Virus record (IMG/VR): IMGVR_UViG_3300032237_000080
Location: 305 to 64,304 of that record
Strand: one strand, 5' to 3'
Length of the DNA: 64,000 nucleotides
Origin: a virus
Lineage: Duplodnaviria; Caudoviricetes
Within the stretch, counting starts at the first letter, position 1; every line of letters begins with the position of its first letter. Below, piece by piece: positions 1 through 36,575 of the stretch. A program made the position numbers and the translations under genes. The notes below the pieces were generated by a model, which saw nothing but the letters and a program-made list of their open reading frames with translations, had not been told where the DNA came from and did not search any database.

Positions 1-1
1 C

Positions 2-442
2 CAAGCCAAGGGCAAGGAGGTCGTTGAGAACACACTTGGCGTGAAGATTCCTGATAACCCCAGCGCAGAAGATGTTGCCAAGCTACGGGAGTTGCAGTTT
101 GCCCATGAGGAAAAGCTCCTAGAGTTGGGTATTGAAAAGGCCAAGATGGAATTGGCTGAAATGGAACTGTTTGCCAAAGCCGCCCAGAATGATGCCGACA
201 ACATCACGGATCGCTGGGAAGCTGATATGTCTTCAGATTCTTGGCTGTCTAAGAACATCAGACCCATGTCGTTGATTGCTATCTTCTGCGGGTATTTCCT
301 ATTTGCCATGATGTCTGCCTTTGGTTTAAACGCCAATGAGTCCTATGTTTCCTTGCTTGGACAGTGGGGAATGTTAATAATGGGTGCATATTTTGGAGGC
401 CGGACAATCGAGAAGCTGGCTGAACTGAAAGGCAAAAAATGA
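2..442 (+). CDS. Holin-like membrane protein (3TM holin type), 5' truncated by the window edge
   Basis: Frame open from base 2 (QAKGKEVVENTLGVKIPD...). SDSWLSKNIRP is followed by hydrophobic segments and a YFGGR..EK C-terminus. Overlaps the endolysin start. Confidence 0.7.
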   Translation, partial: QAKGKEVVENTLGVKIPDNPSAEDVAKLRELQFAHEEKLLELGIEKAKMELAEMELFAKAAQNDADNITDRWEADMSSDSWLSKNIRPMSLIAIFCGYFLFAMMSAFGLNANESYVSLLGQWGMLIMGAYFGGRTIEKLAELKGKK

Positions 443-6739: not shown

Positions 6740-9094
6740 ATGGCTGATGTACAAAGTATAAATTACCGCACGACGGCGTTACCAGAATACCTTGATAAGC
6801 CATATCAAGAGTACATGGGCCTATACGGTGGGCAAGTTTCGGCTGATTTAAAAGCTGGTATGCCTCAGTATGGGCAAGAGCGTATTGCAGGGTTAAGTGA
6901 AGTACAAACCAACGCAATGAATCAAGCGTTGAATATGCAACCTGCCCAACAACTTAATGCCGCTACTGGTTTGATGGGGGCGGCAACTGCTAATGCACTG
7001 AATACTAACTACCAACCGGGGCAGTACAACGCCCAAAATTTTGGTAATCAAGTGGGTGGCTATATGTCGCCCTATATGCAAAACGTAGTTGATATTCAAC
7101 AGCGTGAAGCGCAACGTCAGGCAGATATTGCTGGTACACAACGTGGTGCACGTGCCGCTCAAGCTGGTGCGTTTGGTGGTTCACGTCAAGGAATTGAGAA
7201 TGCGGAAGCCGCACGTAACTTGGCAATACAAAAAGGTGATATTCAAGCCAAGGGATTGCAAGATGCATTCTCTCAAGCTTCTAATCAATACAACATTGGT
7301 AACCAATTAAGTGAGCAGTCACGCCAGTATGGTGCTGGTCTTGGGCTTCAAGGACAACAAGCCGCTATGCAGGGTGCAGGTGCGTTAGGCACACTGGGTA
7401 ACTTGCAGTACAACCAAGCAATGGGTATTAACCAGTTGCAAGAAGGTTACGGCGGTATGCAACAGAACCTTGAACAACAACGCATGAATACTCAGTATCA
7501 GGACTTCCTGAACAAGCAACAGTATCCATACCAGTTGTTGAACCAGTACGGCAACGTGTTGAACAAACAACCCGCCAATATGAATTTGCAACAAACTACC
7601 TACGGGCAGTCTCCAAGTCTTGGTGGTCAAATTATTGGTACGGCTGGTGCATTAGCTACTTCTCCTGCTGGCAAAAACATTTTTGGATTTGCTGAAGGCG
7701 GCATGGTGCAGAACTATGGCAGTGGTGGTGTTACTGACAGTCGTGACGTTACTGACGAAAGTTATATTTCCAAGCTAATTAGCAAAATGTCGCCCCAGCA
7801 ATTACAAGCAATGTTGGGTAATCCTTCTGTGCCTAGAGCGCAGAAACAAATGGCTTCCGACCGTTTAGAAACTTTGATGCATATGCAAGCATCTGCCCAA
7901 CGTGGTCTATTTGGTGCGGCTGAAAATACACCAAGCATTCAAGATATGTATCCTGCCCAAGAAGCCAGAGGTGCCAATGGCGGTATTGTGGCGTTTGCTG
8001 GTGGAGATGATGACGGTAGTTTTGTAGTTGACCCTATGATGGGTACAACCCAAAGCACTACTGCATCTGATGATGACCGTACTTTTTTAGAAAGAATTGG
8101 TCTTGGTAATCGTGAAAACCGTCGGGTGTTAGAAAATCTTGAGTTGCAACAGCGTAAAAAAGAACAAAATACAAAGTCACCACCTCCTCCACCCACCGCC
8201 AAGCAAACAGAAACACCTTACGACGCACGTACGGCTACTCGCAAGTCAGACTACCAAAAGGGTCTTCCTGATCTAAGTGCGTCTGATTTGAAAGGTTTTA
8301 CTTCCGCACTCAAGGGCTTGCCAAGTTCATACAAGGACGAAGTGCTTGCCGCCGCCAAAGAGTTTAGCAAGGGTGATGAAGAAGTTAATGCTAAGTTGGA
8401 ATCATTGCTGGGCAAAGATAAAAAGCGTTCGGAGGATTTTAAAAATGAATCCAGCCGTATGTATTGGAATCAGTTCTTCAGCGGCATTGCAAAAGCTGGC
8501 GCAGAACCCGGTCAGTCTGGTGGTCGTGGAATCATGACTGCCATATCTAAATCCGCTGGCAATATGCCTGAGTACGAAGCCACGTTGCGTAAACAGCAAG
8601 ATCAATATGATTTGTTGGCTGAGAAAAATGAAGTGGACAACCTCAAGTACAAAGTTGCGCTTAAAGACCGTAACTTTGATAAAGCCTTGGGCTTGGAAAA
8701 AGCTATCAAAGAAAACCAGTACCAGATGGCGCACTTGCAACAACAAGCCGCCGCTACTTCTGCTCATACTAAACTTGGTTTAGCGCAATTGGATGAACAA
8801 AAAGACTATCACAAAATGCTGGGCGATGTGTACGGTAAACGTGCGGAAGCAATGCAAGGTGCAAACAAAGCTCGTATGGCACAAGCTGAAGCCAAAGTTA
8901 TGCCCTTGTTCCAATCTGACCCCAACACTCGCAAGCTGGCAAAACAGTTGGAAGATTTGCATGGTAAAAATTGGCAATCACAACCGGGGCCTCAACAAAC
9001 GTATTGGAATGCTTATCAAACTTTCAAAGCCAGAACAATGCCTTCGTTGGTAGACCCAAGTGCGGGTAGCATTCCTTACAGCGATGACCTATGA
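6740..9094 (+). CDS. Putative DNA ejection/pilot protein (Gln/Ala/Gly-rich, helical)
   Basis: 784 aa; AAGGA RBS; GAFGGSRQGI motif and Q-rich composition; lies between the structural genes and the giant gene. Confidence 0.6.
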   Translation: MADVQSINYRTTALPEYLDKPYQEYMGLYGGQVSADLKAGMPQYGQERIAGLSEVQTNAMNQALNMQPAQQLNAATGLMGAATANALNTNYQPGQYNAQNFGNQVGGYMSPYMQNVVDIQQREAQRQADIAGTQRGARAAQAGAFGGSRQGIENAEAARNLAIQKGDIQAKGLQDAFSQASNQYNIGNQLSEQSRQYGAGLGLQGQQAAMQGAGALGTLGNLQYNQAMGINQLQEGYGGMQQNLEQQRMNTQYQDFLNKQQYPYQLLNQYGNVLNKQPANMNLQQTTYGQSPSLGGQIIGTAGALATSPAGKNIFGFAEGGMVQNYGSGGVTDSRDVTDESYISKLISKMSPQQLQAMLGNPSVPRAQKQMASDRLETLMHMQASAQRGLFGAAENTPSIQDMYPAQEARGANGGIVAFAGGDDDGSFVVDPMMGTTQSTTASDDDRTFLERIGLGNRENRRVLENLELQQRKKEQNTKSPPPPPTAKQTETPYDARTATRKSDYQKGLPDLSASDLKGFTSALKGLPSSYKDEVLAAAKEFSKGDEEVNAKLESLLGKDKKRSEDFKNESSRMYWNQFFSGIAKAGAEPGQSGGRGIMTAISKSAGNMPEYEATLRKQQDQYDLLAEKNEVDNLKYKVALKDRNFDKALGLEKAIKENQYQMAHLQQQAAATSAHTKLGLAQLDEQKDYHKMLGDVYGKRAEAMQGANKARMAQAEAKVMPLFQSDPNTRKLAKQLEDLHGKNWQSQPGPQQTYWNAYQTFKARTMPSLVDPSAGSIPYSDDL

Positions 9095-12000
9095 TTATTG
9101 ATCTCCCAAAACTTGGCTCAGTCAGGTTTCGTGATGACCTGACTCCCGAACAGCTTGATGCTGAAGTTCAACGTCTTTCAGCAAAGTACGACTTCAAAAT
9201 TCCCAGACCAGACATTGGTCTTGGCGAAATTGCCAAGCGTGGTTTTATGCGTAGTATGGGAGAAACAGGTATCGCTTTGGGGGATACGCTTCCGGCAATG
9301 GCTGGTAGTGCGTTGGGGTATGACGAATATGCCAAGGGGCAAATGGAAGAAGCGGCAAAGAGCCGTGCGGAATTAGAAGCCAAGTACCCCACACGGTTCA
9401 AGTCGTACAAAGAAATTAGCAGTCCACGTGAAGCACTTGAGTACGGCGCTGAGACTCTTGGTGAACTCACCCCATCAGTTGCTACATCGTTAGTCCCCGG
9501 TGTTGGTTTGGAAGCTGTTGGTGGGCGTATGGCTGGGCGTGCGGCTTTAGAAGCCGCAACAATGGCAGGGCCTCCTTCACGTGCCGCTTTGCTTGGTGTG
9601 GAAGAAGCCGCAAAAGCTGGCGCACGTAAAGGTATGTATGGCGGTGTGTATCTCGGTTCACTTGCCCAAAATGCCCCCGAAGTATTTGATAATATCTATC
9701 AAGAAACAAACAAGATGGAGCCGGGTATTGCAGCATTGGCTGGTGGTATTAGTGCCGTGCTTGACTCTGCGCTCCCTGCAAAAGTGCTTGATGGTTTAGG
9801 TAAGTTTGGTCAACTTAAAGCTATTGAAGCTGTTGCTAAAAATACTGGTGCCGCACCAAAAGTTTGGAAATCTATCGGTAAAGAAGCGGCAGAAACAGCG
9901 GCTACTGAAGGTTTGACCGAAGCGGCACAAGAAGCCATATCCGTCTATGCGGAACACGTTGCTGGTAGTACCAAGGAGTTGTTCGGTAAAGAACACATGG
10001 ATCGGTTCAAAGAATCGTTTGTCAAAGGTGCGATTGGTGGTAGTGCGTTTGGTGTACCCGGTGGTTTGTCAAAAGGTCTTGCAGCAAAAGCAGAATTCAA
10101 TCGCCAACAGCAGGCAAATGAAGTTCCTCCAAACGTGCCGCCAAACGTACCACCTACACAGGGTGCGCTTTCTGCACCGCCAGAACAACTGGCAATTGCT
10201 GGCCCAGAGGAACAACTGCGTTTGGAGTATTCACCTACACCAGAGGCCCCGGCACCTACTACACCTGTCACACCAACAGAAGCTACTACAACAGCACCAG
10301 AACCAGCAGCTCCGGTAGCTGAAAGAAACATACCCAAAGAACTTGGTATGTCCACACGATCCAAAGCTGCCAAAACCATTATGGATTTGGACTTGACCAC
10401 ACCCGAAGGTGTGGAACAGCTTGTGGCTACGGTTGAAAACCCCAGCTTCAAAGGTAAGATTGAAGAAGCGGCATACAACAATTTGTTGTCAACGCTTGAC
10501 CCACAGCACGTGGAAGCCGCACGTACCAAATTAAAAGAGGTGCCGAATGTTGGACAACCTGTCAGTAAACCAAGTGGAACAAGCCCTAGCGTGGTTAGCC
10601 AGCCCGATACAGGAGCCGCCACCACAACAACTGGAGGATTTGAACCAAGTAGAGTGGTTTCTACTAAGCCGGATGTTGGAGGCGCTCCTACAGGAGAAGC
10701 AAAACCAACCGCTCCAGTAACCGAGGTAAAGAGTGAAGCTCCTACTATTGATACTGCTCCTCCTGCTGTTGCCCCTGCCGCATCTGTTGAAGGACGAGAG
10801 ACAACTACTCGCAAGACTGCTAAGACTGCCCCTGCCGAAAAGGTGGAAGCACCAACTCTTGGTAAGACTGCTAAAGATTTAGAAAAAGAACGTTTCGCCC
10901 CTGATACCGCTACGGTAGAAACCAAACTTGGTAAACCATCAGGTTTGAAAGGCGTGGACAAAGATGCCAATTCATACTTTGGCAGATTGCCCACCGAAGA
11001 AGCATTGAAGTGGATTGCCAACGATTTGGTATATCAACCCACGGCATACCGCAACTCATCCATGAAAGTGTTTGAGAACCACCCCGAAGGCCCTGAGAAT
11101 TATTTTTCTTGGGAGGGTGAGGCCGATATGTTCAAAGGTCAGGGTGGTGAACACGCCAAGAATGCTGAAAAGTGGGCACGTGCAAATTTATCCGAGACTG
11201 CTGTCAGCCATTTGGATGAGTGGATTACCCAATACAAGGCAGAGAAGCGTCGTACCGATGCCGCTGAAAAACGCAGAGCCAAACGTGACGCAATCAAGCA
11301 AGCCAGTAAAGAACAGGCTATTGATGAAGCGTTCACCACTGACACTGCTGAGAAGCAAGCTCTCAAGGATATTGAGGAAGACCTTGGCAAGAAACGCAAA
11401 GTGCCAAGAACCAAAAAAGAAAAGCGGGATGCGGCAGAACTTGCACGTCAAGCTCTTGAGGAGTTTGGCCTTGACGAAGACCTTGGCCCGTTGTTGGACT
11501 CCGACCTTGATAGCCTCCTAGCATCTCCCGACACCGCCGCTTTGCACAGCCCAGCGCACCCCGGTGTCCATAAGATGTTGGAGCGTGGCGATATTGTGGG
11601 TGCTATGCGTATGTTGGCTGATAGTGCGTCATCTGACTTTGCCAGTGAGATTGCTGGTAAGTTGCAAAAGTACCTTGGTGGTGTGAAGGTTGAGTATGGT
11701 GCAGAAAAATCCAGCTACGATCCCAAGACCAATACTATCTACTTGACGGACAACGCCACAGAGTATGAAGTTCTTCACGAGGGTGCACACGCCGCACTGT
11801 CTCATGTGTTGGCAAACCCATCACATCCAGTAACCAGACAGATGACAAATCTGTTTGAACAGGCAAAGAAAAACCTTGATGGCGGTGCGTACGGTGCAAA
11901 AAACCTACAGGAGTTTGCCGCTGAGATATGGAGTAACGAAGACTTCCGTAGCCAGTTGCAAGAGATGCAGACTGACAAACCCAAGCTGTCCATGTGGGAC

Positions 12001-14877
12001 AAGATCATTGGTGTCATTCGCAACTTCCTTGGTATGTCACCCAAGCAAACATCCGCTTTGGATGCCGCTGACCGGATGCTCAACGAAATTGTCAGCCCAC
12101 CACCAGAGACACGTACTGGTGAAACGATGTATGCACAGTCGGTACACAACCCAAGTTTGGCAAAGACCGTACTCAATACTGCTGAAAAAATAATGAACAA
12201 AGCCCCCGGCATGACCCCCGAACGGTCAGTTGAATGGCTGTCCAAAGCGGAAGGCGTGGGGGTTAGTGGTCGTCGGACTATGCGTAAATTCCTTAATCTG
12301 TCTGCACTGGGTCAGGTTGCCGAGAAGATCGTTGGCAAAGAAGCTGTTGAGTTTGCCGATAAAGTCAACGCAATGGCTGGTTACTACGACACCATGATGG
12401 AGAAGCTCCAACCGTTGCACAAGCGTTTGGAAGCCTACGCCCAAACTGACCGTTATGCTGACTGGTCAAGATTTGTTCATGAGACTACCCGTGCCGATGT
12501 TGACCCACGTGTACCTCCCAACACATACGTAGGTAGTCCAGAGAAACTCGCTGCGTATAAAGAGTTCCGCAATCATTACTACAACAAGTTGAATGATGTT
12601 GAACGCAAACTGTACGACGACACATTCAAGGCATACAGCGTATTATTTGACGAGTTGAAAGACTCTTTACGCAACAATTTGTTTACTGCGTTCCCCAACG
12701 ACAAAGATCGGGCGCTGTCTATCTATAAGAAAATCATTGACCAGATCACTGCAAAAGGTGTCGAGCACTATGTGCCGCTGTACCGCAGGGGTGACTATTT
12801 CCTGACGTACAAAGAAAAAGGCAGTGCCGACCACACCACAGAACTGTTTGAGTCTGAGATCAAACGGGACAAAGCACGCAGGGAACTGGAAGCCAAAGGT
12901 GCTACTGACTTTGAAGAAGTTTCCAAGTTCAGTGAACTCAAGGCCCGGAATGTGCCTGTAGGTTCAGTTGCTGGTCAGATCGTGAAGATCATGAAAGACG
13001 GCGGCGCGGGCGACCAAGCTGTAGATCAGTTCTTACAACTTATTGTCAGTGCAATGCCAGAGACAAGTATCCTGAAATCCTTTTCAGTTCGTAAGGGAAC
13101 ACCCGGATACATAAACGACGTAGCTTTGGCCTTCTCAAATGTGACCAGTTCAACTGCACGTCAGTTGTCACGTATGCGTTATAGCGAACAGCTACAGGGC
13201 CTCGTAGATAAGATGATTGAAAATGGCAAGGCACTGCGTGGCACAGAAAGCACGTTGGCATCTGAATTCATTGAAGAGTTTGAGGCACGCCAGAAGTACG
13301 CCATGAACCCCAACATTTCAGACTGGGCAAGATACGCCAGTACCGGCGCGTTCTATTTCAACTTAGCTGGCAACGTGTCATCTGCTGTGGTGAACTTGTT
13401 GCAAACCCCAATGATTGCATTCCCGCATTTGGGTGGTAGATATGGGTTTACAGAAACTGGCAAGGCAATGACTGCCGCCACAAAGCTGTATATGGGTAGT
13501 GGGTTGAAGCGTACTGTCACCGACATAACTGGTGAGAAAGTCGATACCCAAGCCATGCTGTCTATTGAAAACATTTTAGACACTGAAGCTGGTAAGAAAT
13601 ACAAAGACCTTATCCAAACTTTAAAAGATCAAGGTTTCCTGCAAACATCTACTGCACGTGACGCATTGGAAGCCGCAAGAAGGCCGTCTTCAGAAGAAGG
13701 TGGTAAGCGTCCTTTGGGTGAACGTGTTGCCTCGTACTCCGCTTTTATGTTCCACCACGCCGAACGTATGAACCGTGAAGTTACGGCTGTTGCCGCATAC
13801 GACTTGGAAATGGCAAAAAGTGGTGACAAAGCAAAAGCAATTGAGAAAGCCATTCGTGCTGTGGAGTTCACACACGGTGCTGGTCACACTGAATCCGGGC
13901 CGAGCATTGGTCATTCAGACATAGGTAAAGTTCTTACCGTGTTCAAGCGGTTTGGTTTCTCCATGTACTATATGTTGTTTGACACTATGCGTCGTGCTGA
14001 ACTGCAAAAGCTGTTCTCCGTATCAAGCGAAGAAGCCAAGATTGCAAGACGGCAGTTGGCGGGTGTGTACTTCATGGCTGGTATGTTTGCTGGTGCTAAG
14101 GGTTTACCCATGTATTGGGTGGCACAGATGGCATATGACGCAGTGCATGATGACGATGAAGACGACTTTGACACTATGGCACGTAAGTACATGGGTGAGT
14201 TGGCATTCAAAGGGCCTGTCAACTACTTTACCAATCTGGGCATTGCTGACCGTGTGGGTTGGACAGACTTGATCTACCGTGAAAACAAAGGCGGTAAAGC
14301 AGATGCAAGTGCGTTGAGTCAAATCATGGAAGGCATATTGGGTGCACCTTATGCCATTGCGAACAGCGCATTCCGTGCAAAAGAGTTGGCGGCTGAAGGT
14401 CACTACGAACGTGCAATCGAAACCATGTTGCCTGTGGCACTCCGCAATCCGTTGAAGGGTGTGCGTTACGCTGTCGAAGGTGCCAATACTTTACGTGGTG
14501 ACCCAGTAATGGGTGATATAAATGGTTACAACGCCGCAATGCAGGTAATGGGTTTTGCTCCGGCAGACTTGTTGAAACAGTACGAAATCAACGCATACGA
14601 AAAGCGTCTGGACAAGGCTACGATAGGTGAGAGCAAGAAACTGCTCAAGCAATATTACGTAGCGCAACGTGCGGGGGATGATGACCGTGCGGATGCAATA
14701 CTGGACAAGTTGTTTGCCCTGAGTGATAAACACAATTTGGGTGTTACACAAGACACTGTGAACAGGTCAGTCAAAGCACGTGATCGTATATCTGACCAAG
14801 AAATGTATCACGGTGTGCAGGTCAACAAGAAGATTCGGGATGAATTTGAGCAAAGTATTGCTGACTTGGAAGACTGA
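9091..14877 (+). CDS. Giant internal virion / polyvalent-type protein with a zincin-like HExxH motif
   Basis: 1928 aa; Ala/Gly-rich N-terminus, Pro/Thr/Ala linker, VLHEGAH at 11776-11790 plus downstream LQEFAAE; last gene of the late arm. Confidence 0.65.
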   Translation: MIIDLPKLGSVRFRDDLTPEQLDAEVQRLSAKYDFKIPRPDIGLGEIAKRGFMRSMGETGIALGDTLPAMAGSALGYDEYAKGQMEEAAKSRAELEAKYPTRFKSYKEISSPREALEYGAETLGELTPSVATSLVPGVGLEAVGGRMAGRAALEAATMAGPPSRAALLGVEEAAKAGARKGMYGGVYLGSLAQNAPEVFDNIYQETNKMEPGIAALAGGISAVLDSALPAKVLDGLGKFGQLKAIEAVAKNTGAAPKVWKSIGKEAAETAATEGLTEAAQEAISVYAEHVAGSTKELFGKEHMDRFKESFVKGAIGGSAFGVPGGLSKGLAAKAEFNRQQQANEVPPNVPPNVPPTQGALSAPPEQLAIAGPEEQLRLEYSPTPEAPAPTTPVTPTEATTTAPEPAAPVAERNIPKELGMSTRSKAAKTIMDLDLTTPEGVEQLVATVENPSFKGKIEEAAYNNLLSTLDPQHVEAARTKLKEVPNVGQPVSKPSGTSPSVVSQPDTGAATTTTGGFEPSRVVSTKPDVGGAPTGEAKPTAPVTEVKSEAPTIDTAPPAVAPAASVEGRETTTRKTAKTAPAEKVEAPTLGKTAKDLEKERFAPDTATVETKLGKPSGLKGVDKDANSYFGRLPTEEALKWIANDLVYQPTAYRNSSMKVFENHPEGPENYFSWEGEADMFKGQGGEHAKNAEKWARANLSETAVSHLDEWITQYKAEKRRTDAAEKRRAKRDAIKQASKEQAIDEAFTTDTAEKQALKDIEEDLGKKRKVPRTKKEKRDAAELARQALEEFGLDEDLGPLLDSDLDSLLASPDTAALHSPAHPGVHKMLERGDIVGAMRMLADSASSDFASEIAGKLQKYLGGVKVEYGAEKSSYDPKTNTIYLTDNATEYEVLHEGAHAALSHVLANPSHPVTRQMTNLFEQAKKNLDGGAYGAKNLQEFAAEIWSNEDFRSQLQEMQTDKPKLSMWDKIIGVIRNFLGMSPKQTSALDAADRMLNEIVSPPPETRTGETMYAQSVHNPSLAKTVLNTAEKIMNKAPGMTPERSVEWLSKAEGVGVSGRRTMRKFLNLSALGQVAEKIVGKEAVEFADKVNAMAGYYDTMMEKLQPLHKRLEAYAQTDRYADWSRFVHETTRADVDPRVPPNTYVGSPEKLAAYKEFRNHYYNKLNDVERKLYDDTFKAYSVLFDELKDSLRNNLFTAFPNDKDRALSIYKKIIDQITAKGVEHYVPLYRRGDYFLTYKEKGSADHTTELFESEIKRDKARRELEAKGATDFEEVSKFSELKARNVPVGSVAGQIVKIMKDGGAGDQAVDQFLQLIVSAMPETSILKSFSVRKGTPGYINDVALAFSNVTSSTARQLSRMRYSEQLQGLVDKMIENGKALRGTESTLASEFIEEFEARQKYAMNPNISDWARYASTGAFYFNLAGNVSSAVVNLLQTPMIAFPHLGGRYGFTETGKAMTAATKLYMGSGLKRTVTDITGEKVDTQAMLSIENILDTEAGKKYKDLIQTLKDQGFLQTSTARDALEAARRPSSEEGGKRPLGERVASYSAFMFHHAERMNREVTAVAAYDLEMAKSGDKAKAIEKAIRAVEFTHGAGHTESGPSIGHSDIGKVLTVFKRFGFSMYYMLFDTMRRAELQKLFSVSSEEAKIARRQLAGVYFMAGMFAGAKGLPMYWVAQMAYDAVHDDDEDDFDTMARKYMGELAFKGPVNYFTNLGIADRVGWTDLIYRENKGGKADASALSQIMEGILGAPYAIANSAFRAKELAAEGHYERAIETMLPVALRNPLKGVRYAVEGANTLRGDPVMGDINGYNAAMQVMGFAPADLLKQYEINAYEKRLDKATIGESKKLLKQYYVAQRAGDDDRADAILDKLFALSDKHNLGVTQDTVNRSVKARDRISDQEMYHGVQVNKKIRDEFEQSIADLED

Positions 14878-18085: not shown

Positions 18086-18337
18086 TTAGATTGGGTTGTA
18101 TTTGTCTTTTAGCTTTTTGGTAACTTCTTCGATCTTCAAGCGCATATCAGGGTGGGGTTTGGATTTACCCAAGAACCACAGATAAACAGCTTGGCGAGAA
18201 ACACCAAGAAACTCTGCTACATCAAGGACTGGTATGTCCCTGTCAATGCAAACACGTCCTAACTTCACCCCGATGTGAGATTGGTCAGCTTTCTTATTGG
18301 CTGTGATGTATTTGCGAGAATAACCTCTGTTATTCAT
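18086..18337 (-). CDS. XRE-like helix-turn-helix DNA-binding protein
   Basis: VLDVAEFLGVSRQAVYLWFLGKSKP matches the HTH pattern; ATG at 18337 preferred. Confidence 0.7.
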   Translation of the reverse strand: MNNRGYSRKYITANKKADQSHIGVKLGRVCIDRDIPVLDVAEFLGVSRQAVYLWFLGKSKPHPDMRLKIEEVTKKLKDKYNPI

Positions 18338-20261: not shown

Positions 20262-20289
20262 ATGATAAACCAAAATTTAACAATGTCAA
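20262..20289 (-). promoter_or_regulatory. Sigma70-type promoter TTGACA-N16-TATCAT
   Basis: Minus-strand -35 at 20284-20289 and -10 at 20262-20267. Confidence 0.55.
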
Positions 20290-25693: not shown

Positions 25694-26275
25694 TCAACCT
25701 CCAAATATCTTCTTAAGCTCGTCGTACAACGCACGTGCCTGTGTGATACTCAAGCTGTCCAGTATCTCCTGTGTACCGTTGCGCTTCGGTGTTGGTAGTG
25801 CCGCACTTATCCCAGTATCTTCATACTTTTGCACTTTCAATCGCTCTTCTCGCTTTGCCGCTTTAGCCGCACGTGCAACCTCTGCCTGTGCTCTCATCTT
25901 TTCCAAACGTTCTTCACTGGCTTGCTCTTCTGCCTTGCGAATAGCTTCCAACTCTAATCTTTTTTGTTCACTTATTACTCTGTATTTGAATGACGCTCTA
26001 CATATCGTCGGGTCGAAAAACTCTTCACGTTCCAAAAAGTTTTTATCTGTAAGTTGTTTGAGCGAAGATGACACGCTCGACTTAGGCGTATCAGGATACT
26101 CACGCATGATGATGTTTTGTATATTGCTTGCCGGACTGTTTGGATATTTCAATACAAAGTCAATTATCTTTCTAGACAAAGGGGAATACGTTTTTTCCTG
26201 TATTGCTTGGTGTAAATCCTCTTCTTTGTTCCACTCGTTAATCACTGCTTCAAGTTTCTCTTTCATTATTCCCAT
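25694..26275 (-). CDS. Putative winged-helix DNA-binding protein
   Basis: SRKIIDFVLKYP...KSSVSSSLKQLTDKNFLERE wHTH-like segment, then a charged coiled coil. Confidence 0.5.
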   Translation of the reverse strand: MGIMKEKLEAVINEWNKEEDLHQAIQEKTYSPLSRKIIDFVLKYPNSPASNIQNIIMREYPDTPKSSVSSSLKQLTDKNFLEREEFFDPTICRASFKYRVISEQKRLELEAIRKAEEQASEERLEKMRAQAEVARAAKAAKREERLKVQKYEDTGISAALPTPKRNGTQEILDSLSITQARALYDELKKIFGG

Positions 26276-29071: not shown

Positions 29072-29176
29072 TTAAGCCCTCCAAAAAAATACATCTAACA
29101 CCAAAACGACCATCGCTAAAACATAAACGACGGTCAACCAAAACGTCTCGTTGATAACTGTTTCTTTAATCGACAT
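29072..29176 (-). CDS. 34-aa membrane peptide
   Basis: MSIKETVINETFWLTVVYVLAMVVLVLDVFFWRA. Confidence 0.45.
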   Translation of the reverse strand: MSIKETVINETFWLTVVYVLAMVVLVLDVFFWRA

Positions 29177-30347
29177 AGATAGCCGCCCCGACTTTAGGCT
29201 GTGCCTTGTTACCACCAACGATGCACCACAACACAGGACAGTCCCACTCGCCCCATGAACTACCCACATAACCATCTGTCAACATCACTACACACTCAGG
29301 CTTGATGTGGTTGTCTTTCAAGTACGTAGCAACACACGTAGGGTCAGTGCCACCACCCCCTGCCGGTTTAGTTGATTCAACTAACTTGCCTTGCTTGTCA
29401 CGACCATACACCTCATGTGCCGCCACTTCGGTATCCCAGTAGATCAAGTCCACCATCTCAGGCTGTACGTTCACACAGATAGCTTGCACCTCAGATAAGA
29501 ACTTGGCTAAGTCTTCATTGCCAATCGAACCCGATGTATCTATGCCGATCACGATACGACCCATTGATTCGCTCAATGTACTAGGCATATACATATCATG
29601 CTGTAACCATCTACGATTAACACGTTGCCACGTTGATATGTCCTTACCATCAGCCAGTGAGTTGATGAAGTCACGCAACTGTTCACGCCAGTCAACCTTG
29701 GGTGTCAACAAGTCTTCAAGTATGCGGGATGACTTACCACCTAACTTACCCGCCATGATTTGACCTTGACGTATTGCTTGGTCAATATCTTTCTTGATCT
29801 CTTCAATCTCTTCGTCAGTTCTACCGCTCTCCCAGTCATGTGAGTCGAACCCCTCGCCATCACTACTACCCCCTTCGCCGTCTTCATCGTCGCTCTCTTC
29901 CAATAAGATGTTGAACACCTCTTGAGAGTCCATGTCACGGAACCGCTCGTCATATAGTCCACCCTTGGGTAACGTAACGAACCCGCTTGATGATGCTTCA
30001 ATATCTTTGATGATGATATTGATTACATAGTCACACGCCATGTTCGCACACCGTGCATTCTGCTCATACAAATGCTTCCACAAGAACGTATGCTGAAACA
30101 ACTTGTGTAGATTCTCATGCAGTATCAAGCCACGTAAGTCAGAGTCGCCCATGTCTTCGATGAACTTCTTGCCATACAAACAGTCAACGCCATTGGTACA
30201 GGCAGTAGGAACTTTGTCAGTCACTTCATACTTGCCAACGAATATGACGCTTGCATACTCCATAGTTTCTTTGTGTGCCATCAATTCGACGTGTGCTCTC
30301 TCCACACGCTTAAGTCCTGACAACTGATTGGTTTGTGTAATAAACAT
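29166..30347 (-). CDS. Metallopeptidase-like plus vWA domain protein (DUF2201-like)
   Basis: LILHENLH (HExxH), NMACDYVIN, acidic linker, MIDAS IDTSGS, GGGGTD, MLTDGY. Confidence 0.8.
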   Translation of the reverse strand: MFITQTNQLSGLKRVERAHVELMAHKETMEYASVIFVGKYEVTDKVPTACTNGVDCLYGKKFIEDMGDSDLRGLILHENLHKLFQHTFLWKHLYEQNARCANMACDYVINIIIKDIEASSSGFVTLPKGGLYDERFRDMDSQEVFNILLEESDDEDGEGGSSDGEGFDSHDWESGRTDEEIEEIKKDIDQAIRQGQIMAGKLGGKSSRILEDLLTPKVDWREQLRDFINSLADGKDISTWQRVNRRWLQHDMYMPSTLSESMGRIVIGIDTSGSIGNEDLAKFLSEVQAICVNVQPEMVDLIYWDTEVAAHEVYGRDKQGKLVESTKPAGGGGTDPTCVATYLKDNHIKPECVVMLTDGYVGSSWGEWDCPVLWCIVGGNKAQPKVGAAIYVD

Positions 30348-30423
30348 ATGATCTCCCGGGTTAGCTATTAAACACATAGGACAACTTCATACGGTATGAA
30401 TTTGTCCCGACTAGAACACTCAA

Positions 30424-31506
30424 TTACTTCTGCTTGGCAAACAGATAGTTGTTGCTTGCCGCCCATGCCGCAAACTTAGGATTGGTTGCCGCTACGTTCT
30501 GCTTCGGGCAATCTTTCGCCATGACAGTACGTGCAAACAAACCCTGCGCTTCCTTGGTAAGACGTGGTAAGAACTCCATGAACGCATCCATCGTGGTCTT
30601 CTCAATACGTTGTACCGCCTTGGTTACTAACATACACGCCGCCGCCGCACTTGTAGGTATCGTCACACCTTGTGGGTCTTTGATTAACTCATCCCAACTC
30701 ACCAACTGATTGTCGAGCTTGACCATCGTCAAAATATTGTGCATCGCCTTGTCACCGACAGTGCCCATCAGTGCATGGCACATCACATCGTCACCCAACA
30801 ACATAGTACGGTGTATTACATCGCTTGCCGCATGGAACGAACGTGGTGTACAAAACGCCATACGAACTGTACGTGGGTCATTGATATACAGATTCTGCTC
30901 AGGCTTCTCGTAGTCTTCGAACGATGCAAGCATCTCAGGGAACTCACGCAATGCCGCAATGATTACTGGATGCCAATTATTGTTGATGCCAAACTCCATC
31001 ACCGCCAACGCTTCGGGCTTTGCGACTCGTACTTGAATCACACGGTTACGAACGTGTGGCGGTACGTTGTCACCGATACCCTCGACCGATAGATTGGTAG
31101 TTGAGAATATGACACCCTCCAACTTGTAGCTACCTTGTTGACGCTCAAGCATAAGACGTAGACACGCATTCAACACACCGCCCTTGGCTTTGCCCAACTC
31201 GTCAAGCATCATCACGACTTTCTTACCCTTGAAGTGCAAGCCGAACTCTTCGTTAGGAATGAATGAGCACACCTCAACGCCATCGACCGTACGAATTTTA
31301 GGCACAGAGAAGTCACCAACATCTTTAGTTGTCAGGTCAACGTAACAGAACAAATGGTCTTTGAACTGCTCGTACTTCTGCAACGATTTGAGGATTGATG
31401 ATTTGCCAATACCCATCTCACCTTGTACCAAGACAGTACGTAGGTCACCGACAGCGGCAATCAGGTCAGCGGTTTGTTGCAAAGACAAAGATTTATACAT
31501 AGACAT
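30424..31506 (-). CDS. MoxR-like AAA+ ATPase
   Basis: Walker A GEMGIGKSS, Walker B MMLDE, STTN sensor, VRNR arginine finger, TPRS. Confidence 0.85.
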   Translation of the reverse strand: MSMYKSLSLQQTADLIAAVGDLRTVLVQGEMGIGKSSILKSLQKYEQFKDHLFCYVDLTTKDVGDFSVPKIRTVDGVEVCSFIPNEEFGLHFKGKKVVMMLDELGKAKGGVLNACLRLMLERQQGSYKLEGVIFSTTNLSVEGIGDNVPPHVRNRVIQVRVAKPEALAVMEFGINNNWHPVIIAALREFPEMLASFEDYEKPEQNLYINDPRTVRMAFCTPRSFHAASDVIHRTMLLGDDVMCHALMGTVGDKAMHNILTMVKLDNQLVSWDELIKDPQGVTIPTSAAAACMLVTKAVQRIEKTTMDAFMEFLPRLTKEAQGLFARTVMAKDCPKQNVAATNPKFAAWAASNNYLFAKQK

Positions 31507-31580
31507 GGTTAGTCCCTTTCATGGTTGATTAAAAAACAAATTCATACGGTATGAAAACATACCGCCCCGATAACTGTTTC

Positions 31581-32459
31581 TCACAGAGAAAACTTATCCA
31601 GTATGGAGTCCACCTTGCGCTTCGTATCAGCACGTAGTGCGTCACTCTCACGTAATGAACCCGCATCCACATTACGCATGGCATCCTCCAACTGCCTACG
31701 CATTTCTTCCAGTCGATTGTCACCAGTCACATTGAAGTGTTTCAATAATCCGCATACCTCAATCGCATTCTCAACAAGCGAGTCACGGAATATCTTCTTC
31801 TTCGGTTCACCATCAGCACCCACGTCGTCAGCAAGACGCTCTGACATCTTGACCAGTACGTCATGCAACCTATCCCACGCATCTTGCATTGCACCTTTGA
31901 TGCGGGTATCCATCACACCCTCGTAGTGTGTCTTCAACTCTTGCAGTCCCTGCTCGGCAATGTCCACAGCAAAATGTCCTGACGTAGGCAGTGGTGCAAA
32001 CGCATAACGAAATCCAAACTTGTCCACGATTTGCTCACGCATGGGGTAGTCGTCACGGTTAAACAAGTCACCTAGTTGGAAAGCCGCCGCCGACACAAGC
32101 GTGTCGTACTCATTCAAGAAGTTGTTGACAGCAAGTGCAAACTGTTGCTCGTAATCCGCCAGTCGTGACTTGTAGTCCATGAACTGTGTCATCACCAACA
32201 TACGGTCACCGTTGTCACCCCACGGTTGCGTCACACCATAGTGCCATGTACGCACAGCATTCGCCACCTTGCCCACATCTTCAAGCTTGGATGAACCCGC
32301 CAAAAGATTTTTGTGGTAGTTACCTGCACGTGTCTTCGTAGAATTTTGTTGGTCAACCTCTTCCGACACACGCTTGTCGAGCTTACGCCCAGTCCACACA
32401 GATAGCGACAGATTGACAATCAATGCCGAGCCATTCAAACGAGAAACATTTTCAATCAT
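31581..32459 (-). CDS. Conserved phage protein next to the AAA/vWA pair (DUF3150-like, tentative)
   Basis: ALIVNLSLSVWTGRKLDK...QLGDLFNRDDYP...KKKIFRDS; AAGGA RBS. Confidence 0.65.
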   Translation of the reverse strand: MIENVSRLNGSALIVNLSLSVWTGRKLDKRVSEEVDQQNSTKTRAGNYHKNLLAGSSKLEDVGKVANAVRTWHYGVTQPWGDNGDRMLVMTQFMDYKSRLADYEQQFALAVNNFLNEYDTLVSAAAFQLGDLFNRDDYPMREQIVDKFGFRYAFAPLPTSGHFAVDIAEQGLQELKTHYEGVMDTRIKGAMQDAWDRLHDVLVKMSERLADDVGADGEPKKKIFRDSLVENAIEVCGLLKHFNVTGDNRLEEMRRQLEDAMRNVDAGSLRESDALRADTKRKVDSILDKFSL

Positions 32460-32540
32460 GATGATTCCTTTCAAAGATTGGTGTTTTCATACAGTATGAA
32501 TTTACACCTACTAACACAAAACAATATCAACTAAGACCAC

Positions 32541-32569
32541 AGTATAACACAAGTATACACGTGTGTCAA
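32541..32569 (-). promoter_or_regulatory. Sigma70 promoter TTGACA-N17-TATACT with extended -10 TG
   Basis: Minus-strand -35 at 32564-32569, -10 at 32541-32546, 17-nt spacer. Confidence 0.75.
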
Positions 32570-32570
32570 C

Positions 32571-32762
32571 CTATTGTGATTCAACGCTACCTTTAAATTT
32601 ATTGTAGTCGTCAACCAAATGGTTACGCAATTCCGCATCATCCAATATTGCACGGATAAACACGTCAGCTTTGTATTGCTCATGCTTGTACATAAACGCA
32701 TAGCCAGTGGCAAGCACAGCCCAACACAGCAATACAAATTCAGTCACAGTAAATTCAATCAT
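32571..32762 (-). CDS. Small membrane protein
   Basis: 63 aa with an N-terminal transmembrane segment. Confidence 0.55.
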   Translation of the reverse strand: MIEFTVTEFVLLCWAVLATGYAFMYKHEQYKADVFIRAILDDAELRNHLVDDYNKFKGSVESQ

Positions 32763-32763
32763 G

Positions 32764-32988
32764 TCACACCACCTTATTCAATTTATCTAACACATACTCA
32801 CGCATCAAGGCATACGCTTCGTCCTTGCGCCCCTCACGGTCAGCCAACCATATCTTGGTCAGCGTCTCGTTGTCTTCAAAATTTACAGGTCTACCCCGCT
32901 CTTCCAACTCTTCAAGTAAGTCAGCGGTATCAAAGTCGCTCAGGTCAACGTCCACCTCGACCTCTGTTGTTATCGTTCTGTATGTCAT
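32764..32988 (-). CDS. Hypothetical early protein
   Basis: EVDVDLSDFDTADLLEELEERG acidic motif. Confidence 0.6.
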   Translation of the reverse strand: MTYRTITTEVEVDVDLSDFDTADLLEELEERGRPVNFEDNETLTKIWLADREGRKDEAYALMREYVLDKLNKVV

Positions 32989-33215
32989 GTCCTTATCTCC
33001 TTTTGGTTAGTTTGTTTCAAAGTTACAGGCGCACTCTCAGCAGTCACAAACATATAGCCACCCTTGCCATACTCTTGCACCACCGTCCAACTACGCCGCT
33101 CTGCACGGGCATTGTCTTCGCCACACATAAGGCAACATCTGTATCCAAGTTGCCATCTCTCCACAGGGAATTCATCCCCACAATCTATGCAGTCTCTCCA
33201 GTCGCTTGATTTCAT
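32985..33215 (-). CDS. Zinc-finger-like early protein (DksA/TraR-C4-like spacing)
   Basis: CIDCGDEFPVERWQLGYRCCLMCG. Confidence 0.6.
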   Translation of the reverse strand: MKSSDWRDCIDCGDEFPVERWQLGYRCCLMCGEDNARAERRSWTVVQEYGKGGYMFVTAESAPVTLKQTNQKEIRT

Positions 33216-33580
33216 ACAACCTCCCTTTCTACTAAACCTACGATACCTTTGCTACGCACCACCAACATATCCTCAAGGCACAGCTTCACTGTGTCACCCA
33301 ATGGATGTAGTTGCGACTTGTGTTTGCTCGTTGTCATGCTGTACTTTGTGGCGTTCTCAAACCATTGCCCCGCAAGCTCATCCCATACGAACAACGGAAA
33401 GTCGTAGCGATACGAATACACCACGTATCGTTTGACAATATCCTTTGTGCCGTCAATGCCTTGCTCATACCATTCGGCAAACGTGTTGCTACCCATGAAC
33501 ACTTTGCGGTTTTGCACGTACTGACGTGCGTTGTAGTTTGCAATTTGTGGTTTGCTACCTTTCGATACTTTCATTTCCAT
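33212..33580 (-). CDS. Hypothetical early protein
   Basis: 122 aa; YVVYSYRYDFPLFVW...KYSMTTSKHKSQ. Confidence 0.6.
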   Translation of the reverse strand: MEMKVSKGSKPQIANYNARQYVQNRKVFMGSNTFAEWYEQGIDGTKDIVKRYVVYSYRYDFPLFVWDELAGQWFENATKYSMTTSKHKSQLHPLGDTVKLCLEDMLVVRSKGIVGLVEREVV

Positions 33581-33744
33581 TCCCCTTTCAATGCGAGTTT
33601 GAGTTTCTCTTCTTCCAATTTCATACGGTATGAATTTGGTTTCTTAACTACACTGCCGGCGCCAGCAGTCGTGTTATATCCAATCCACAACATCTTGTCA
33701 CGTGTGTGCTTGTGTTCCAAATGTTTGCGTTCGAGTTTGTTCAT
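33571..33744 (-). CDS. 57-aa hypothetical protein (absent from the ORF track); contains one palindrome copy
   Basis: MNKLERKHLEHKH...NSYRMKLEEEKLKLALKGEWK; overlaps both neighbours. Confidence 0.55.
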   Translation of the reverse strand: MNKLERKHLEHKHTRDKMLWIGYNTTAGAGSVVKKPNSYRMKLEEEKLKLALKGEWK

Positions 33745-33941
33745 TCTGTTTCTCCCTCAAGTCCAGTTCTGTTAATCCGCACAGCGCGTACCCAGTAGTC
33801 CTCGGTAGTCCCACCGTGTCGATAGCTCTTGATGTACGCATCCCTTGCCGCCAGTGCGTTCTCTTGTGTGTCATGCACTGACAACAATTCATGGCAGTCA
33901 TCCAAAAATTCCACCACCCATATATGCTTCTCGTTATTCAT
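33741..33941 (-). CDS. Hypothetical early protein
   Basis: MNNEKHIWVVEF start after GGAGG. Confidence 0.6.
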   Translation of the reverse strand: MNNEKHIWVVEFLDDCHELLSVHDTQENALAARDAYIKSYRHGGTTEDYWVRAVRINRTGLEGETE

Positions 33942-34078
33942 CTCACCTCCCTTACATAAAGTAACCACGTACGTTTGCCTACACCTAGCACGTACCCTGC
34001 ATGGCGTTCGGCATCTGCTTTGCTCTCAGCTTTGAATGTCAGCACCGAGCCGTTGTAATAGCATTCAAATGTTTTCAT
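33938..34078 (-). CDS. 46-aa hypothetical protein, first gene of the early operon (absent from the ORF track)
   Basis: MKTFECYYNGSVLTFKAESKADAERHAGYVLG...; AAGGA RBS. Confidence 0.6.
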   Translation of the reverse strand: MKTFECYYNGSVLTFKAESKADAERHAGYVLGVGKRTWLLYVREVR

Positions 34079-34846
34079 AGGATTTCCTTTCAACGATAGC
34101 AAGACGCTATCGGATAAGGGACTGAATCAATCCCCTATCACGTTATAGTCTCTTACACATGGTTAATCAAAACCACACGTCGTCGTATCTCGTTGTATCT
34201 CATCGTTCGGTTTGGCTTTACTAACTGCGATAGTGTTTGTCGTTTGCACATCTTCCTTTCGGCTTGCATTCCCTGCGGTTGTCATCTGTCACCTACTCCG
34301 CATTAGGGGTTTAGGGCTTTCGCCCATAAGTTTTCATACAGTATGAAAACTCAGCCCCACACATTTAGGCAGTATCTACATTGCATTGCACGTTGCTATC
34401 GTTCTTCGGAAACACTCAGCTTCACTACTCACTACACCACAACGTGTGCCGACTGACTACGGCACGCCTATTCACACAGGGAGACTTCACACATCTGCTT
34501 TTGAGGTTTAGGAATTTGGATTGAGGGTGCGTTACAGTCAGGAATCTGTCGAGTGATTGGGTACTGGCAGAGCCAGTCCCTTGCAATTTCATACAGTATG
34601 AAAGTGCGTACACGTGCATAACGCAAACGTGCAGTGGCACACCAACAACCCGCCTAGCCATGTCCTTTCTTGTACAGCTTGCTTCTGACCATGTGCTTCT
34701 CGTATTAACATTAGTTCCGAGCGGCGGTTTGATTACGTGGCAATTTCTTGTCACGTGTTGTCTATTGGTTTGTTAAAGAACGGTGTTTTCATACGGTATG
34801 AAAACCTGCCAAATCGTCGATGCGGTTTTGGTCTTGATGAGCTTCT

Positions 34847-34875
34847 ATTATAAGGCATTTGGGGGTACTTGTCAA
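34847..34875 (-). promoter_or_regulatory. Perfect-consensus sigma70 promoter TTGACA-N17-TATAAT driving the early operon
   Basis: Plus strand reads ATTATA at 34847-34852 and TGTCAA at 34870-34875; spacer 17 nt. Confidence 0.85.
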
Positions 34876-35280
34876 GTCAAAATAAGTGGGTATAAGGCAG
34901 TATTGTGGGGTGTATTATCTATTTAATTCAGCAATATTCTAGGGGTGAGAATAAAAGTAAGTCGTTGATTATAAAAGGGAAATTGGCTAAAAAAAGGGTA
35001 ATATTCTATTATTCTTGGTTTTTGGGATTTCAAGCCAGAGAAAACATCCGAACACAAATATTTCTAAAACCATGTGTGTGAACACCAATAAAAAGAGAAA
35101 TTGATAAAAAATTAAAAAGGGGTGTATATATATTTTTTTATAGAATAATAGAATAATAGGGGGAAAACTCTCCGCAAGTGCCTATGAATGCTGAACTTTC
35201 TAATATTCCCGAGCAGAGAATATTGCTGAATAAAATAGACAATGCACTTGCTTATAACACCTTGACAAATTAAAAGTGGT

Positions 35281-35564
35281 GCGGCACGCAAAGAGGAAAC
35301 AGTTATCAGGAGATTGTGGTATTTCATACAGTATGAAATTGCTGTGTGATAGTTATAACAACGTGTAGCAGCGGAGTGTAGTTCAGTGCGGCACGCTGAG
35401 AGGAAACAGTTATCAAAGGGAATCGGTCAGGGTACCGTAGTTGTGTAGATATTAAACGTGGTAAATTGTTGTGGTGTGTGGGTAGCTCAAAGCGTGAGCT
35501 GCTGGTTGGACGTTTGTGTGGCACGCTACAAGATGTTGGCGGCACAAGTAAGAAACAGTTATCA
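35281..35564 (+). repeat. Three direct repeats GCGGCAC-N-GAAACAGTTATCA
   Basis: Copies at 35281-35308, 35388-35415 and 35539-35564. Confidence 0.85.
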
Positions 35565-35600
35565 AAGCGCCAAACGATGTTGGCGCAGGAAATTTTGGGC

Positions 35601-35628
35601 AAAAAAAAGCCCCCGATTTCTCGGGGGC
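35601..35628 (-). terminator. Rho-independent terminator after the 180-aa orphan gene
   Basis: GCCCCCGA-TTTC-TCGGGGGC (35609-35628) preceded by A8 on plus; same stem as the 14884 terminator. Confidence 0.85.
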
Positions 35629-35648
35629 TAAATTCATACGGTATGAAA

Positions 35649-36191
35649 TTACTCAGCTTTGAATTCGATACCTTGTGCTTCTAACCAGCTTTTCACCATG
35701 CCGTGAAAAGTGGCTTTCACTGTATCGTTATATTCAGCTTCAATAACTTCACACGCTTCAACAAAGTCAGCATGGTTAAACACTTTGAGTAAAAGCTGTG
35801 ATAACTCAGCTTTACCTTTGCCTTTACCCTTTGCCTTTTTCTTCGCGTCATTGCGTGCCTTATTCCAATCACCAACTGGTTTGCCAGTTGATACAGCATC
35901 TTTAAACGTGCCCAAGTAAACACGTTGTGCTGTAGCTGGTGAAACGTTTGCACCAACGCATCCATCAATGAATGCAGTAGCAATGGCGCATCCAGTGCCG
36001 TCTTTCTTATAACGTCCAACTGTAACCTTACGGGAAAATAAGGTAGCAATGTGATTGTTAATATCAGTTTTGAATTTCTCCGCTGTATTTTCCAATTCAT
36101 TCAGTTGGCCAAGTAGTGCACCAATAGCTACTGCTATTGATACGTTATCGAGTGTGGATTCCACAGCGACTGCAACTTGTGACTTTTTCAT
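35649..36191 (-). CDS. Stand-alone 180-aa hypothetical protein
   Basis: AAGGA RBS, own terminator, Ala/Lys-rich with a KKKAKGKGKGK linker. Confidence 0.75.
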   Translation of the reverse strand: MKKSQVAVAVESTLDNVSIAVAIGALLGQLNELENTAEKFKTDINNHIATLFSRKVTVGRYKKDGTGCAIATAFIDGCVGANVSPATAQRVYLGTFKDAVSTGKPVGDWNKARNDAKKKAKGKGKGKAELSQLLLKVFNHADFVEACEVIEAEYNDTVKATFHGMVKSWLEAQGIEFKAE

Positions 36192-36575
36192 AGCAATGTC
36201 CTTTCGAGACGTTACTGCTTAGGCGCTATGCGAATGCAATGCAATTCCTAACCAGTGACTTAACTATAACATATTGTGGAGTGTTTGCACGGGATAGGTA
36301 GGAATCAGTCTACCTTTACATTTTCATACGGTATGAAATTAAGCGACCCCCACCCCCCAGATTTGGGTCAAGGGACTCCAGCGCGTAGTGGTACTCGAAT
36401 CCGCACACCCGATCACAACTTTTTTGAAACACCCCCCACTACTGTTTATTTATCCAGCCCCCCACCCCTATATATTTTTTTGGAAATACCCCCCGGGTAG
36501 GATTCCTTTACCTCCTTGCTACACACTATATATGTGTGTTACATTTCGGCATCCTTGGAGTGCGACCTTCCTCCC

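Follow-up and report, generated by a model that had tools for sequence, protein, structure and literature searches.

An early-region palindrome array in an uncultured freshwater podophage changes jointly with a 180-residue orphan protein, its predicted binder

Regulation by one protein at many copies of a short word is a known principle. KorB of plasmid RK2, for example, is a ParB-family global regulator that acts at OB operators, and the lambdoid N/boxB systems have two nut sites per genome, in which the loop is recognised and a boxA is present. In the Cluster A mycobacteriophages (L5 with its gp71, Bxb1, Trixie), one repressor serves many near-identical stoperators, and protein and motif have diverged jointly (PMC6550527). 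These stoperators are asymmetric 13-bp elements, bound by a monomer and oriented with transcription, and 20-30 of them are spread genome-wide in a temperate phage (PMC9283540, PMC6550527). The Cluster O mycobacteriophages have a 17-bp dyad repeat, TGTTCGG-NNN-CCGAACA, in more than 30 copies genome-wide (PMC4351075), and the PeSL cassettes of T4-type phages are terminator/promoter composites without a dedicated binding protein (PMC2839356, PMC4122927). Here we describe an array of perfect palindromes in the early region of an uncultured freshwater podophage, together with an orphan protein of 180 residues (180 aa) whose sequence changes with them. What is new is a protein family with unusually clean regulator-operator co-variation. 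The DNA studied, hereafter the window, is a stretch of 64,000 nucleotides (nt) from the IMG/VR virus record IMGVR_UViG_3300032237_000080 (positions 305 to 64,304), a record of 64,304 bases rated complete, so that the window is approximately the entire genome.

An exact pattern scan of the window for TTCATAC-N-GTATGAA returns exactly ten copies, the same ten that an earlier note on this DNA had listed. Allowing up to two mismatches adds none in 64 kb (shuffles expect 0.00 and 0.21), in agreement with the statement of that note that no copy lies elsewhere. The full record holds the same ten copies; confinement to 6 kb of 64 kb therefore describes the whole genome.

The earlier note had proposed looking for the site in related genomes. 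A search with the window ATPase returned 36 related viral loci, and these carry a family of such palindromes, 5-16 copies per relative, of the same shape and in the same early-region places. Four classes of site are found, with the arms TTCATAC, TTCGTAC, TTCCCAC and TTCATAT. Across classes the arms always differ jointly, the innermost pair included: the TTCATAT class has T/A there in place of C/G. Lineage-specific and symmetric bases are also seen at flank positions ±1 and ±2 (AC..GT, CT..AG, GC..GC, AT..AT), so that the recognised word would extend to about 19 bp. In ten whole relative genomes most sites fall within one 5-10 kb block, and the few outliers lie a few kb further, in adjoining replication genes; the reversed-pattern control in whole genomes yields zero sites. 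Eleven whole genomes together contain 102 exact sites and a single one-mismatch site in their early regions. Across these 11 genomes every site is within or next to the early and adjoining replication region, and the late genes are without sites.

The centre of the palindrome is loosely constrained across the family: some lineages have C or G only, others mostly A or T, in either orientation. In the window the centre on the plus strand is G or A in 10/10 copies, as the earlier note had observed, and the closest relative (L005) is alike, with C in 11/11. This uniformity is not kept in other relatives. The directionality that the note had read into it does not survive the comparison, since the orientation of the centre is mixed in the other relatives.

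The palindromes are most likely docking sites of the 180-aa protein, because the relatives change the palindrome and a short stretch of this protein jointly. The gene (35649..36191, minus strand) bears its class signature in residues 55-117, and in the alignment window residues ~68-116 sort by site class. Class and signature correspond one-to-one in 27 distinct orthologues: TTCCCAC goes with KKTAQ-NYLSL(F/L)..DWGGTK (8/8 orthologues), TTCATAT with EWNPAQSK (3/3), TTCGTAC with Q(K/Q)TYLPTF..DWNxQR (6/6), and TTCATAC with (R/K)VYL or -NYL plus DWNxxR (10/10). Individual replacements can be followed as well. Arginine gives way to glutamine precisely where the innermost G becomes A, and valine to threonine where arm position 4 goes from A to G. 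Arginine prefers guanine, and glutamine and asparagine prefer adenine; the first of the two replacements fits these preferences. On these sequence comparisons, the 180-aa protein is very probably the partner of the palindromes and is hereafter called the binder.

As a control for shared ancestry, class changes were counted on maximum-likelihood trees, where four classes require a minimum of three changes. The tree of residues 55-117 needs exactly 3, that of the N-terminal helix 5, and that of the C-terminal domain of the same protein 8. On the trees of the DUF3150 protein, the ATPase and TerL, 7-8 changes are needed, and shuffled class labels give at least 10. The sites that abut the ATPase gene thus track a protein segment whose coding DNA is 5 kb distant, and not the gene at a distance of 30 bp.

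Natural exchanges between classes point the same way. Genome G005 mixes classes, with six TTCCCAC and three TTCATAT sites; a second binder gene was predicted ahead of the search, and two paralogues were found, one per site class. The paralogue at 281-793, with KKTAQ..DWGGTK, lies among the TTCCCAC sites, and that at 59242-59766, with EWNPAQSK, lies between the TTCATAT sites; the TTCATAC-type protein in G004, a close relative, shares 84% identity with it. G005 may be an intermediate that is exchanging the word of its whole regulon, or the carrier of an inserted second module. Two collinear loci, L037 (TTCATAC) and L028 (TTCCCAC), have DNA that is 83-93% identical. All five homologous sites are nevertheless switched between them in both arms, the best-aligned pair retaining 63/70 identical flank bases, and their binders are near-identical outside the class segment. 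In addition, nine site classes were predicted beforehand from the signatures of new family members, and 9/9 were right on their contigs.

Two observations concern imperfect or unexpected sites. In L084, of the TTCATAT class with four sites and an EWNPAQN protein, one TTCATAC site lies at 7976-7990; it may be a leftover of recombination or the sign of a second regulator past the contig end. L037 (6841-6875) and L028 (2197-2231) each carry, directly upstream of a perfect site, a second, degenerate palindrome whose centre is 2 nt long, TTCATAC-CA-GTATGAc and TTCCCAC-TG-GTTGGAA, respectively. The class of these degenerate copies has switched along with that of the perfect sites, indicating that weaker variant sites exist and are missed by exact-match counts.

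Among its options, the earlier note had named an operator array for a phage repressor, with the helix-turn-helix (HTH) genes at 18086, 19643 and 25694 or the orphan at 35649 as candidates. The idea of sites for a DNA-binding protein is supported, and co-variation singles out the orphan; the three HTH genes fall away. Those at 18086 (HTH_3-like) and 19643 (HTH_17) are 96% and 94% identical, respectively, between G004 and G005, two genomes that share no class, and the gene at 25694 is missing from relatives that still carry sites. Proteins of 193 aa and 164 aa were likewise rejected, being missing from both G004 and G005. Rival regulator candidates are, in sum, either 94-99% identical across genomes of differing class or absent.

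The binder gene is the first gene of the leftward early region, and the protein is found in every relative that covers its position. It evolves fast: window and L005 versions share 35% identity, compared with 80-98% for other L005 proteins. Neither the single sequence nor a profile has a match in Pfam, PHROG or PDB sequences, and tblastn with the binder finds nothing in cultured phages. Its metagenomic relatives form at least 442 clusters at 90% identity, named "hypothetical protein" at most. In the Atlas, solely unnamed viral clusters (of 253, 100 and 730 members) were found; scores of 0.81-0.83 to DUF3102 and to a Streptomyces phage repressor cluster are leads only. In an AlphaFold2 model with a confidence (pLDDT) of 82, the chain opens with a 44-residue N-terminal helix. 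The class-specific residues sit on the next two helices, 69-80 and 85-102; an arm (103-116) and a basic linker of low confidence then lead to a C-terminal domain of three helices. Helices 69-80 and 85-102 are spanned by the pattern G-[LVW]-x3-T-[AS]-x-(x)-x-Y-L, and together pattern and modelled helices look like a helix-turn-helix.

The binder gene and its array lie at the head of a minus-strand gene block (~16,000 to 36,200) that also encodes a DUF927 primase-helicase, an SNF2 helicase, a PD-(D/E)XK exonuclease and a family A DNA polymerase. From 36,516 on, the plus strand carries terS-like, TerL, portal, capsid, ejection and tail-fibre genes. Within the early region, a three-gene operon on the minus strand (29166..32459) encodes a DUF3150-like protein, a MoxR-type AAA ATPase and a DUF2201/VWA protein, and every one of its genes is preceded by a palindrome. 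Site 1 (30386..30400, centre G on plus) follows the ATPase stop and precedes the DUF2201/VWA gene, whose ATG is 38 nt away; site 2 (31541..31555) lies between the DUF3150-like and AAA ATPase genes, 34 nt ahead of the ATG; and site 3 (32486..32500) ends 26 nt ahead of the DUF3150-like ATG. These three sites are thus 26-38 nt ahead of the operon genes. Site 4 (33620..33634) falls in the 3' part of a predicted 57-aa open reading frame (ORF; 33571-33744, minus), where it reads N-S-Y-R-M-K, as the earlier note had pointed out, and is also ~40 nt ahead of the ATG of a 122-aa gene. A 40-aa ORF begins 47 nt on from site 5 (34333..34347). Sites 6 (34588..34602) and 8 (35323..35337) are in non-coding DNA, the latter adjoining GATAACTGTT repeats; sites 4, 5, 6 and 8 thus fall at junctions of small genes or in a largely non-coding stretch. 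Another pair flanks the binder gene on both sides: site 9 (35633..35647) directly past its stop codon and ahead of an intrinsic-terminator-like hairpin with a T-run (35608..35629, minus), and site 10 (36323..36337) upstream, with 146 nt from site start to ATG, a distance of 125-147 nt in the lineages checked.

Two sites of the window also follow promoter-like sequences at a short distance. The perfect-consensus promoter P_A (TTGACA-17-TATAAT, 12/12; 34847..34875, minus) is followed by site 7 (34788..34802), which starts 45 nt past its -10 box. P_B (TTGACA-17-TATACT with an upstream TG, 11/12; 32541..32569, minus) is followed in the same way by site 3, which starts 41 nt past the -10 box. Near-consensus sigma70 promoters in 11 genomes number 27, and 17 of them have a site 34-46 nt past the -10 box. 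Between site 10 and the binder gene lies a conserved box CTATCCCGTGCAA with a -10-like TGTTATAGT (36263..36297, minus). From the alignment, the two may constitute the binder gene promoter, which would place the centre of site 10 near -74.

A mechanism that would join these observations begins with a homodimer of the 180-aa protein on the palindromes as duplex DNA. It would read a word of ~19 bp made of two lineage bases, TTC, four class bases, a loose centre, and the mirror image. Host RNA polymerase would initiate at the near-consensus sigma70 promoters, and the protein would sit on perfect sites, presumably of high affinity, that cover about +27 to +39 relative to them. It would also occupy the sites ahead of every gene in the DUF3150/ATPase/VWA operon and the pair that flanks its own gene. 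Early transcription would then be blocked or damped, either by a roadblock or by an operator array with feedback. Negative control is suggested because the sites lie just past the strongest host-type promoters, stand before each operon gene and bracket the gene of the presumed regulator; moreover, perfect, all-or-none sites suit long-lived roadblocks. Taken as a whole, a homodimer on the palindromes with negative early control is the best explanation, and we lean toward it modestly; its repressive roadblock component we judge to be close to evenly balanced, with at most a slight lean in its favour.

Several points weigh against this account. Signature and class share ancestry, so that the correlation is partly phylogenetic, and the contrasts offered by recombinants and paralogues are fewer, amounting to ~4 to 7 independent events. 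Foldseek searches of PDB, VIA-wide and BFVD, with the full model and with residues 55-124, gave no convincing match. The best fold Z scores, 5.2 (chorismate-mutase-like helical dimers) and 3.9 for the isolated segment, belong to unrelated helical proteins, and the family has no Pfam HTH match. Because no family or fold match accompanies it, the helix-turn-helix reading has the sequence pattern and the two predicted helices as its sole basis. A site near +30 leaves the promoter unoccluded, and repression would accordingly require a roadblock or looping. Site 10 is ~74 bp upstream of the presumed binder transcription start, which is not a classical position for autorepression. The centre is a pyrimidine on the sense strand (10/10 in the window; C in 11/11 in L005) despite a purine-rich strand, and a symmetric dimer does not explain so strict a pyrimidine centre. 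The protein may therefore instead have a positive, switch-like or architectural role.

The rival closest to the preferred reading keeps the same protein and the same DNA sites and dispenses with repression. The protein would instead load or modify RNA polymerase (antitermination, activation), act as an early/late switch like phi29 p4, or bridge sites and thereby organise the early region. In its favour, the sites lie downstream of promoters, not on them; site 10, whose spacing is conserved, separates the binder gene from the divergent terS/late operon and adjoins conserved G-rich boxes that face this operon; and the flexible basic linker with its separate C-terminal domain could touch another partner. 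Conversely, the sites are not followed by a -10-like element at constant spacing, the promoters are near consensus already and should need no activator, and perfect sites ahead of every operon gene suit roadblocks best. We regard this as a minority possibility that deserves to be kept in mind. A different molecule is invoked by the proposal that the palindromes act as RNA hairpins in leftward transcripts, which the earlier note had raised for antitermination or processing. Stability or translation of the transcripts could be affected as well, and the hairpins would be read by the 180-aa protein or a host factor. Most sites do lie in 5' leaders or intergenic spacers, 26-48 nt ahead of start codons, and would be transcribed, and the extended complementary flanks that the note had described are real in some window copies. 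They are, however, no more frequent than expected over 228 distinct family sites. Against a within-genome shuffle of right flanks, pairing scores are z -0.8 at ±1..2 and z +0.3 at ±3..8, and the longest paired runs equal the control. An apparent pairing at ±1/±2, obtained from a cross-genome shuffle, equals the lineage consensus and is gone in the within-genome shuffle. Covariation of the flanks, which the note had suggested as a check, thus gives no sign of a stem within genomes. The innermost pair cannot pair around a 1-nt loop, yet it changes on both arms, and variants of the G-U type are absent from sites that are exact and all-or-none. The bases that follow the sites are A-rich or mixed, with a T-run after site 2 only; the sites do not form the G+C-rich hairpin with U-run of an intrinsic terminator, the real terminator being a separate hairpin. 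Rfam has no match at gathering score, and both of its sub-threshold matches fall at that terminator. Furthermore, site 10 is upstream of the presumed binder promoter, and a host factor cannot account for a class switch between 93%-identical phages. These comparisons favour a symmetric dimer that recognises duplex DNA, and they make the RNA hairpin improbable.

Mosaicism around the sites might suggest that they are short homology seams for cassette swaps, like PeSL, with regulation secondary. Window and L005 share a 75-bp island of 97% identity around site 4, with unrelated DNA on either side, and the window's 122-aa gene (33212-33580), whose junction adjoins site 4, is absent from L005. In L005, a 248-bp insertion (9738-9986) with a 70-aa ORF sits exactly between the palindrome and the ATPase gene, at the position of window site 2. 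The replacement of the binder gene between the two phages, however, breaks at the gene edges and not at palindromes, 15 bp is short for homologous recombination, and co-variation with a protein is left unexplained; we consider seams very improbable. The least credible proposal, to our mind, is that the sites are promoters of a phage RNA polymerase or sigma factor, for example hairpin promoters of the N4 type. The window copies can be drawn as a 6-bp stem with a 3-nt loop and a central template-strand purine in 10/10, and the spacing to start codons given above would suit promoters. The proteins scanned include no RNA polymerase, though, the central purine is mixed in relatives, a palindromic promoter would fire both ways, and the late genes have no sites. 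A 1928-aa protein of this phage, described below, likewise has no sequence match to PDB chains of the N4 virion RNA polymerase or to an RNA polymerase PHROG. The remaining option of the earlier note, loading or stop sites on the DNA end that enters the cell first, found no support.

Should the preferred account, in which the 180-aa protein docks on the palindromes, hold, a function is proposed for a widespread viral family of "hypothetical proteins", and the cognate protein of an early-region palindrome array is named through co-variation alone. The pairing of Arg-to-Gln with innermost G-to-A, and of Val-to-Thr with A-to-G at arm position 4, amounts to a readable recognition code. The four natural protein-site pairs look orthogonal and are candidates for parts of synthetic gene circuits. 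A regulon of 5-16 sites can evidently change its word, apparently by way of a two-regulator intermediate such as G005. It is conceivable, although we think it unlikely, that each protein-site pair is a device of incompatibility or "immunity" in a phage of virulent type, in which the early regulator of a resident phage silences the early region of a superinfecting relative of the same class. If true, such a device would drive diversification into four or more orthogonal specificities and the accumulation of two systems in G005, and would be a lytic-phage counterpart of heteroimmunity that works through a DNA-binding family without a recognised fold.

Other elements around the array deserve mention. 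The box CTATCCCGTGCAA (36285-36297) is near-invariant over all four classes, a conservation far beyond the needs of a weak -35 element. A second repeated word, GATAACTGTT (minus-strand sense TGATAACTGTTYC), occurs at 35298-35307, 35405-35414 and 35554-35563; its 2-3 copies lie just downstream of the binder gene, interleaved with palindromes. The word is kept in place in G004-G009 and duplicated with each binder paralogue in G005, and TTCGTAC-class genomes lack the exact 10-mer. The word may be where another factor binds, or a piece of a small RNA. Between binder and terS-like gene, window 36338-36500 holds G/C-rich boxes with CCCCCACCCCCC on plus. Their other-strand ATCT-GGGGGGTGGGG is kept in most relatives at a fixed distance from site 10, and the boxes could be a late promoter, a pac signal or the site of another protein. 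Within the array, an imperfect 53-nt inverted repeat (34910-34962 / 35195-35247, 77% complementary) brackets a 232-nt A+T-rich, ORF-poor stretch, for which an origin of replication is a possibility. Further downstream, past the SNF2 helicase gene, a near-consensus sigma70-like TTGACA-16-TATCAT (20262-20289, minus) was noticed. TTGACA-16-TAT(C/G/T)AT without a nearby palindrome also occurs in G001, G003, G004, G005 and G010, as compared by sequence and not by position. A palindrome-free promoter implies that the replication genes may have an entry point that escapes the regulator.

As for the phage itself, the nearest cultured phages by TerL are the lake phage DSL-LC04 and the pelagiphages HTVC027P and HTVC023P, at 46-55% identity. 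The layout differs in DSL-LC04 and HTVC027P, and no repeated palindrome occurs in the 18-20 kb examined. A DNA search of GenBank phages with the region gave zero matches, and the public sequencing runs with matching DNA are freshwater or aquatic metagenomes; RNA runs are absent from the listing. No integrase was seen among the ~30 proteins scanned, and no tRNA genes were found. For the 1928-aa protein (window 9091-14877), matches are confined to the C-terminal parts of giant phage proteins, 2400-4650 residues long; PHROGs gives one family of these the label "DarB-like antirestriction". The 1928-aa protein has no PDB sequence match and is probably an ejected internal virion protein.

Set beside the systems described at the outset, the array shares with lambda N/boxB its 15-nt symmetric early-leader elements and lineage-specific protein-site pairs; it differs in that within a genome only the centre varies, and in that the evidence favours duplex DNA. 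With PeSL it has in common an early sigma70 promoter and a palindrome repeated in a variable early region, with mosaic junctions nearby. The present palindrome, however, comes after the promoter, has no U-tract and changes along with a protein. KorB/OB offers the parallel of one global regulator for about a dozen palindromes, all identical and perfect, that lie near promoters in some cases and far from them in others; the present carrier is a phage and not a plasmid, and a Pfam ParB domain was not found in the 180-aa family. The Cluster O repeat resembles the present site in its invariant 7-bp arms and variable centre, its many copies mostly at gene junctions and its lack of a consistent orientation. 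No binder is named for it in the accessible part of its description (PMC4351075), whereas here an early-region array has a cognate protein indicated by co-variation. The closest working analogue appears to be the Cluster A repressor with its stoperators. In both, some sites lie at promoters and most in short intergenic gaps of operons, and specificities are distinct. The present sites differ in being perfect palindromes of 15-19 bp, 5-16 in number, that stay within or next to the early region; the phage shows no integrase among its scanned proteins, and the window protein has no sequence match to a known repressor in Pfam, PHROG or PDB. As in the functional class of repressors with many operators, the palindromes exceed their expected copy number and co-vary with a phage protein.

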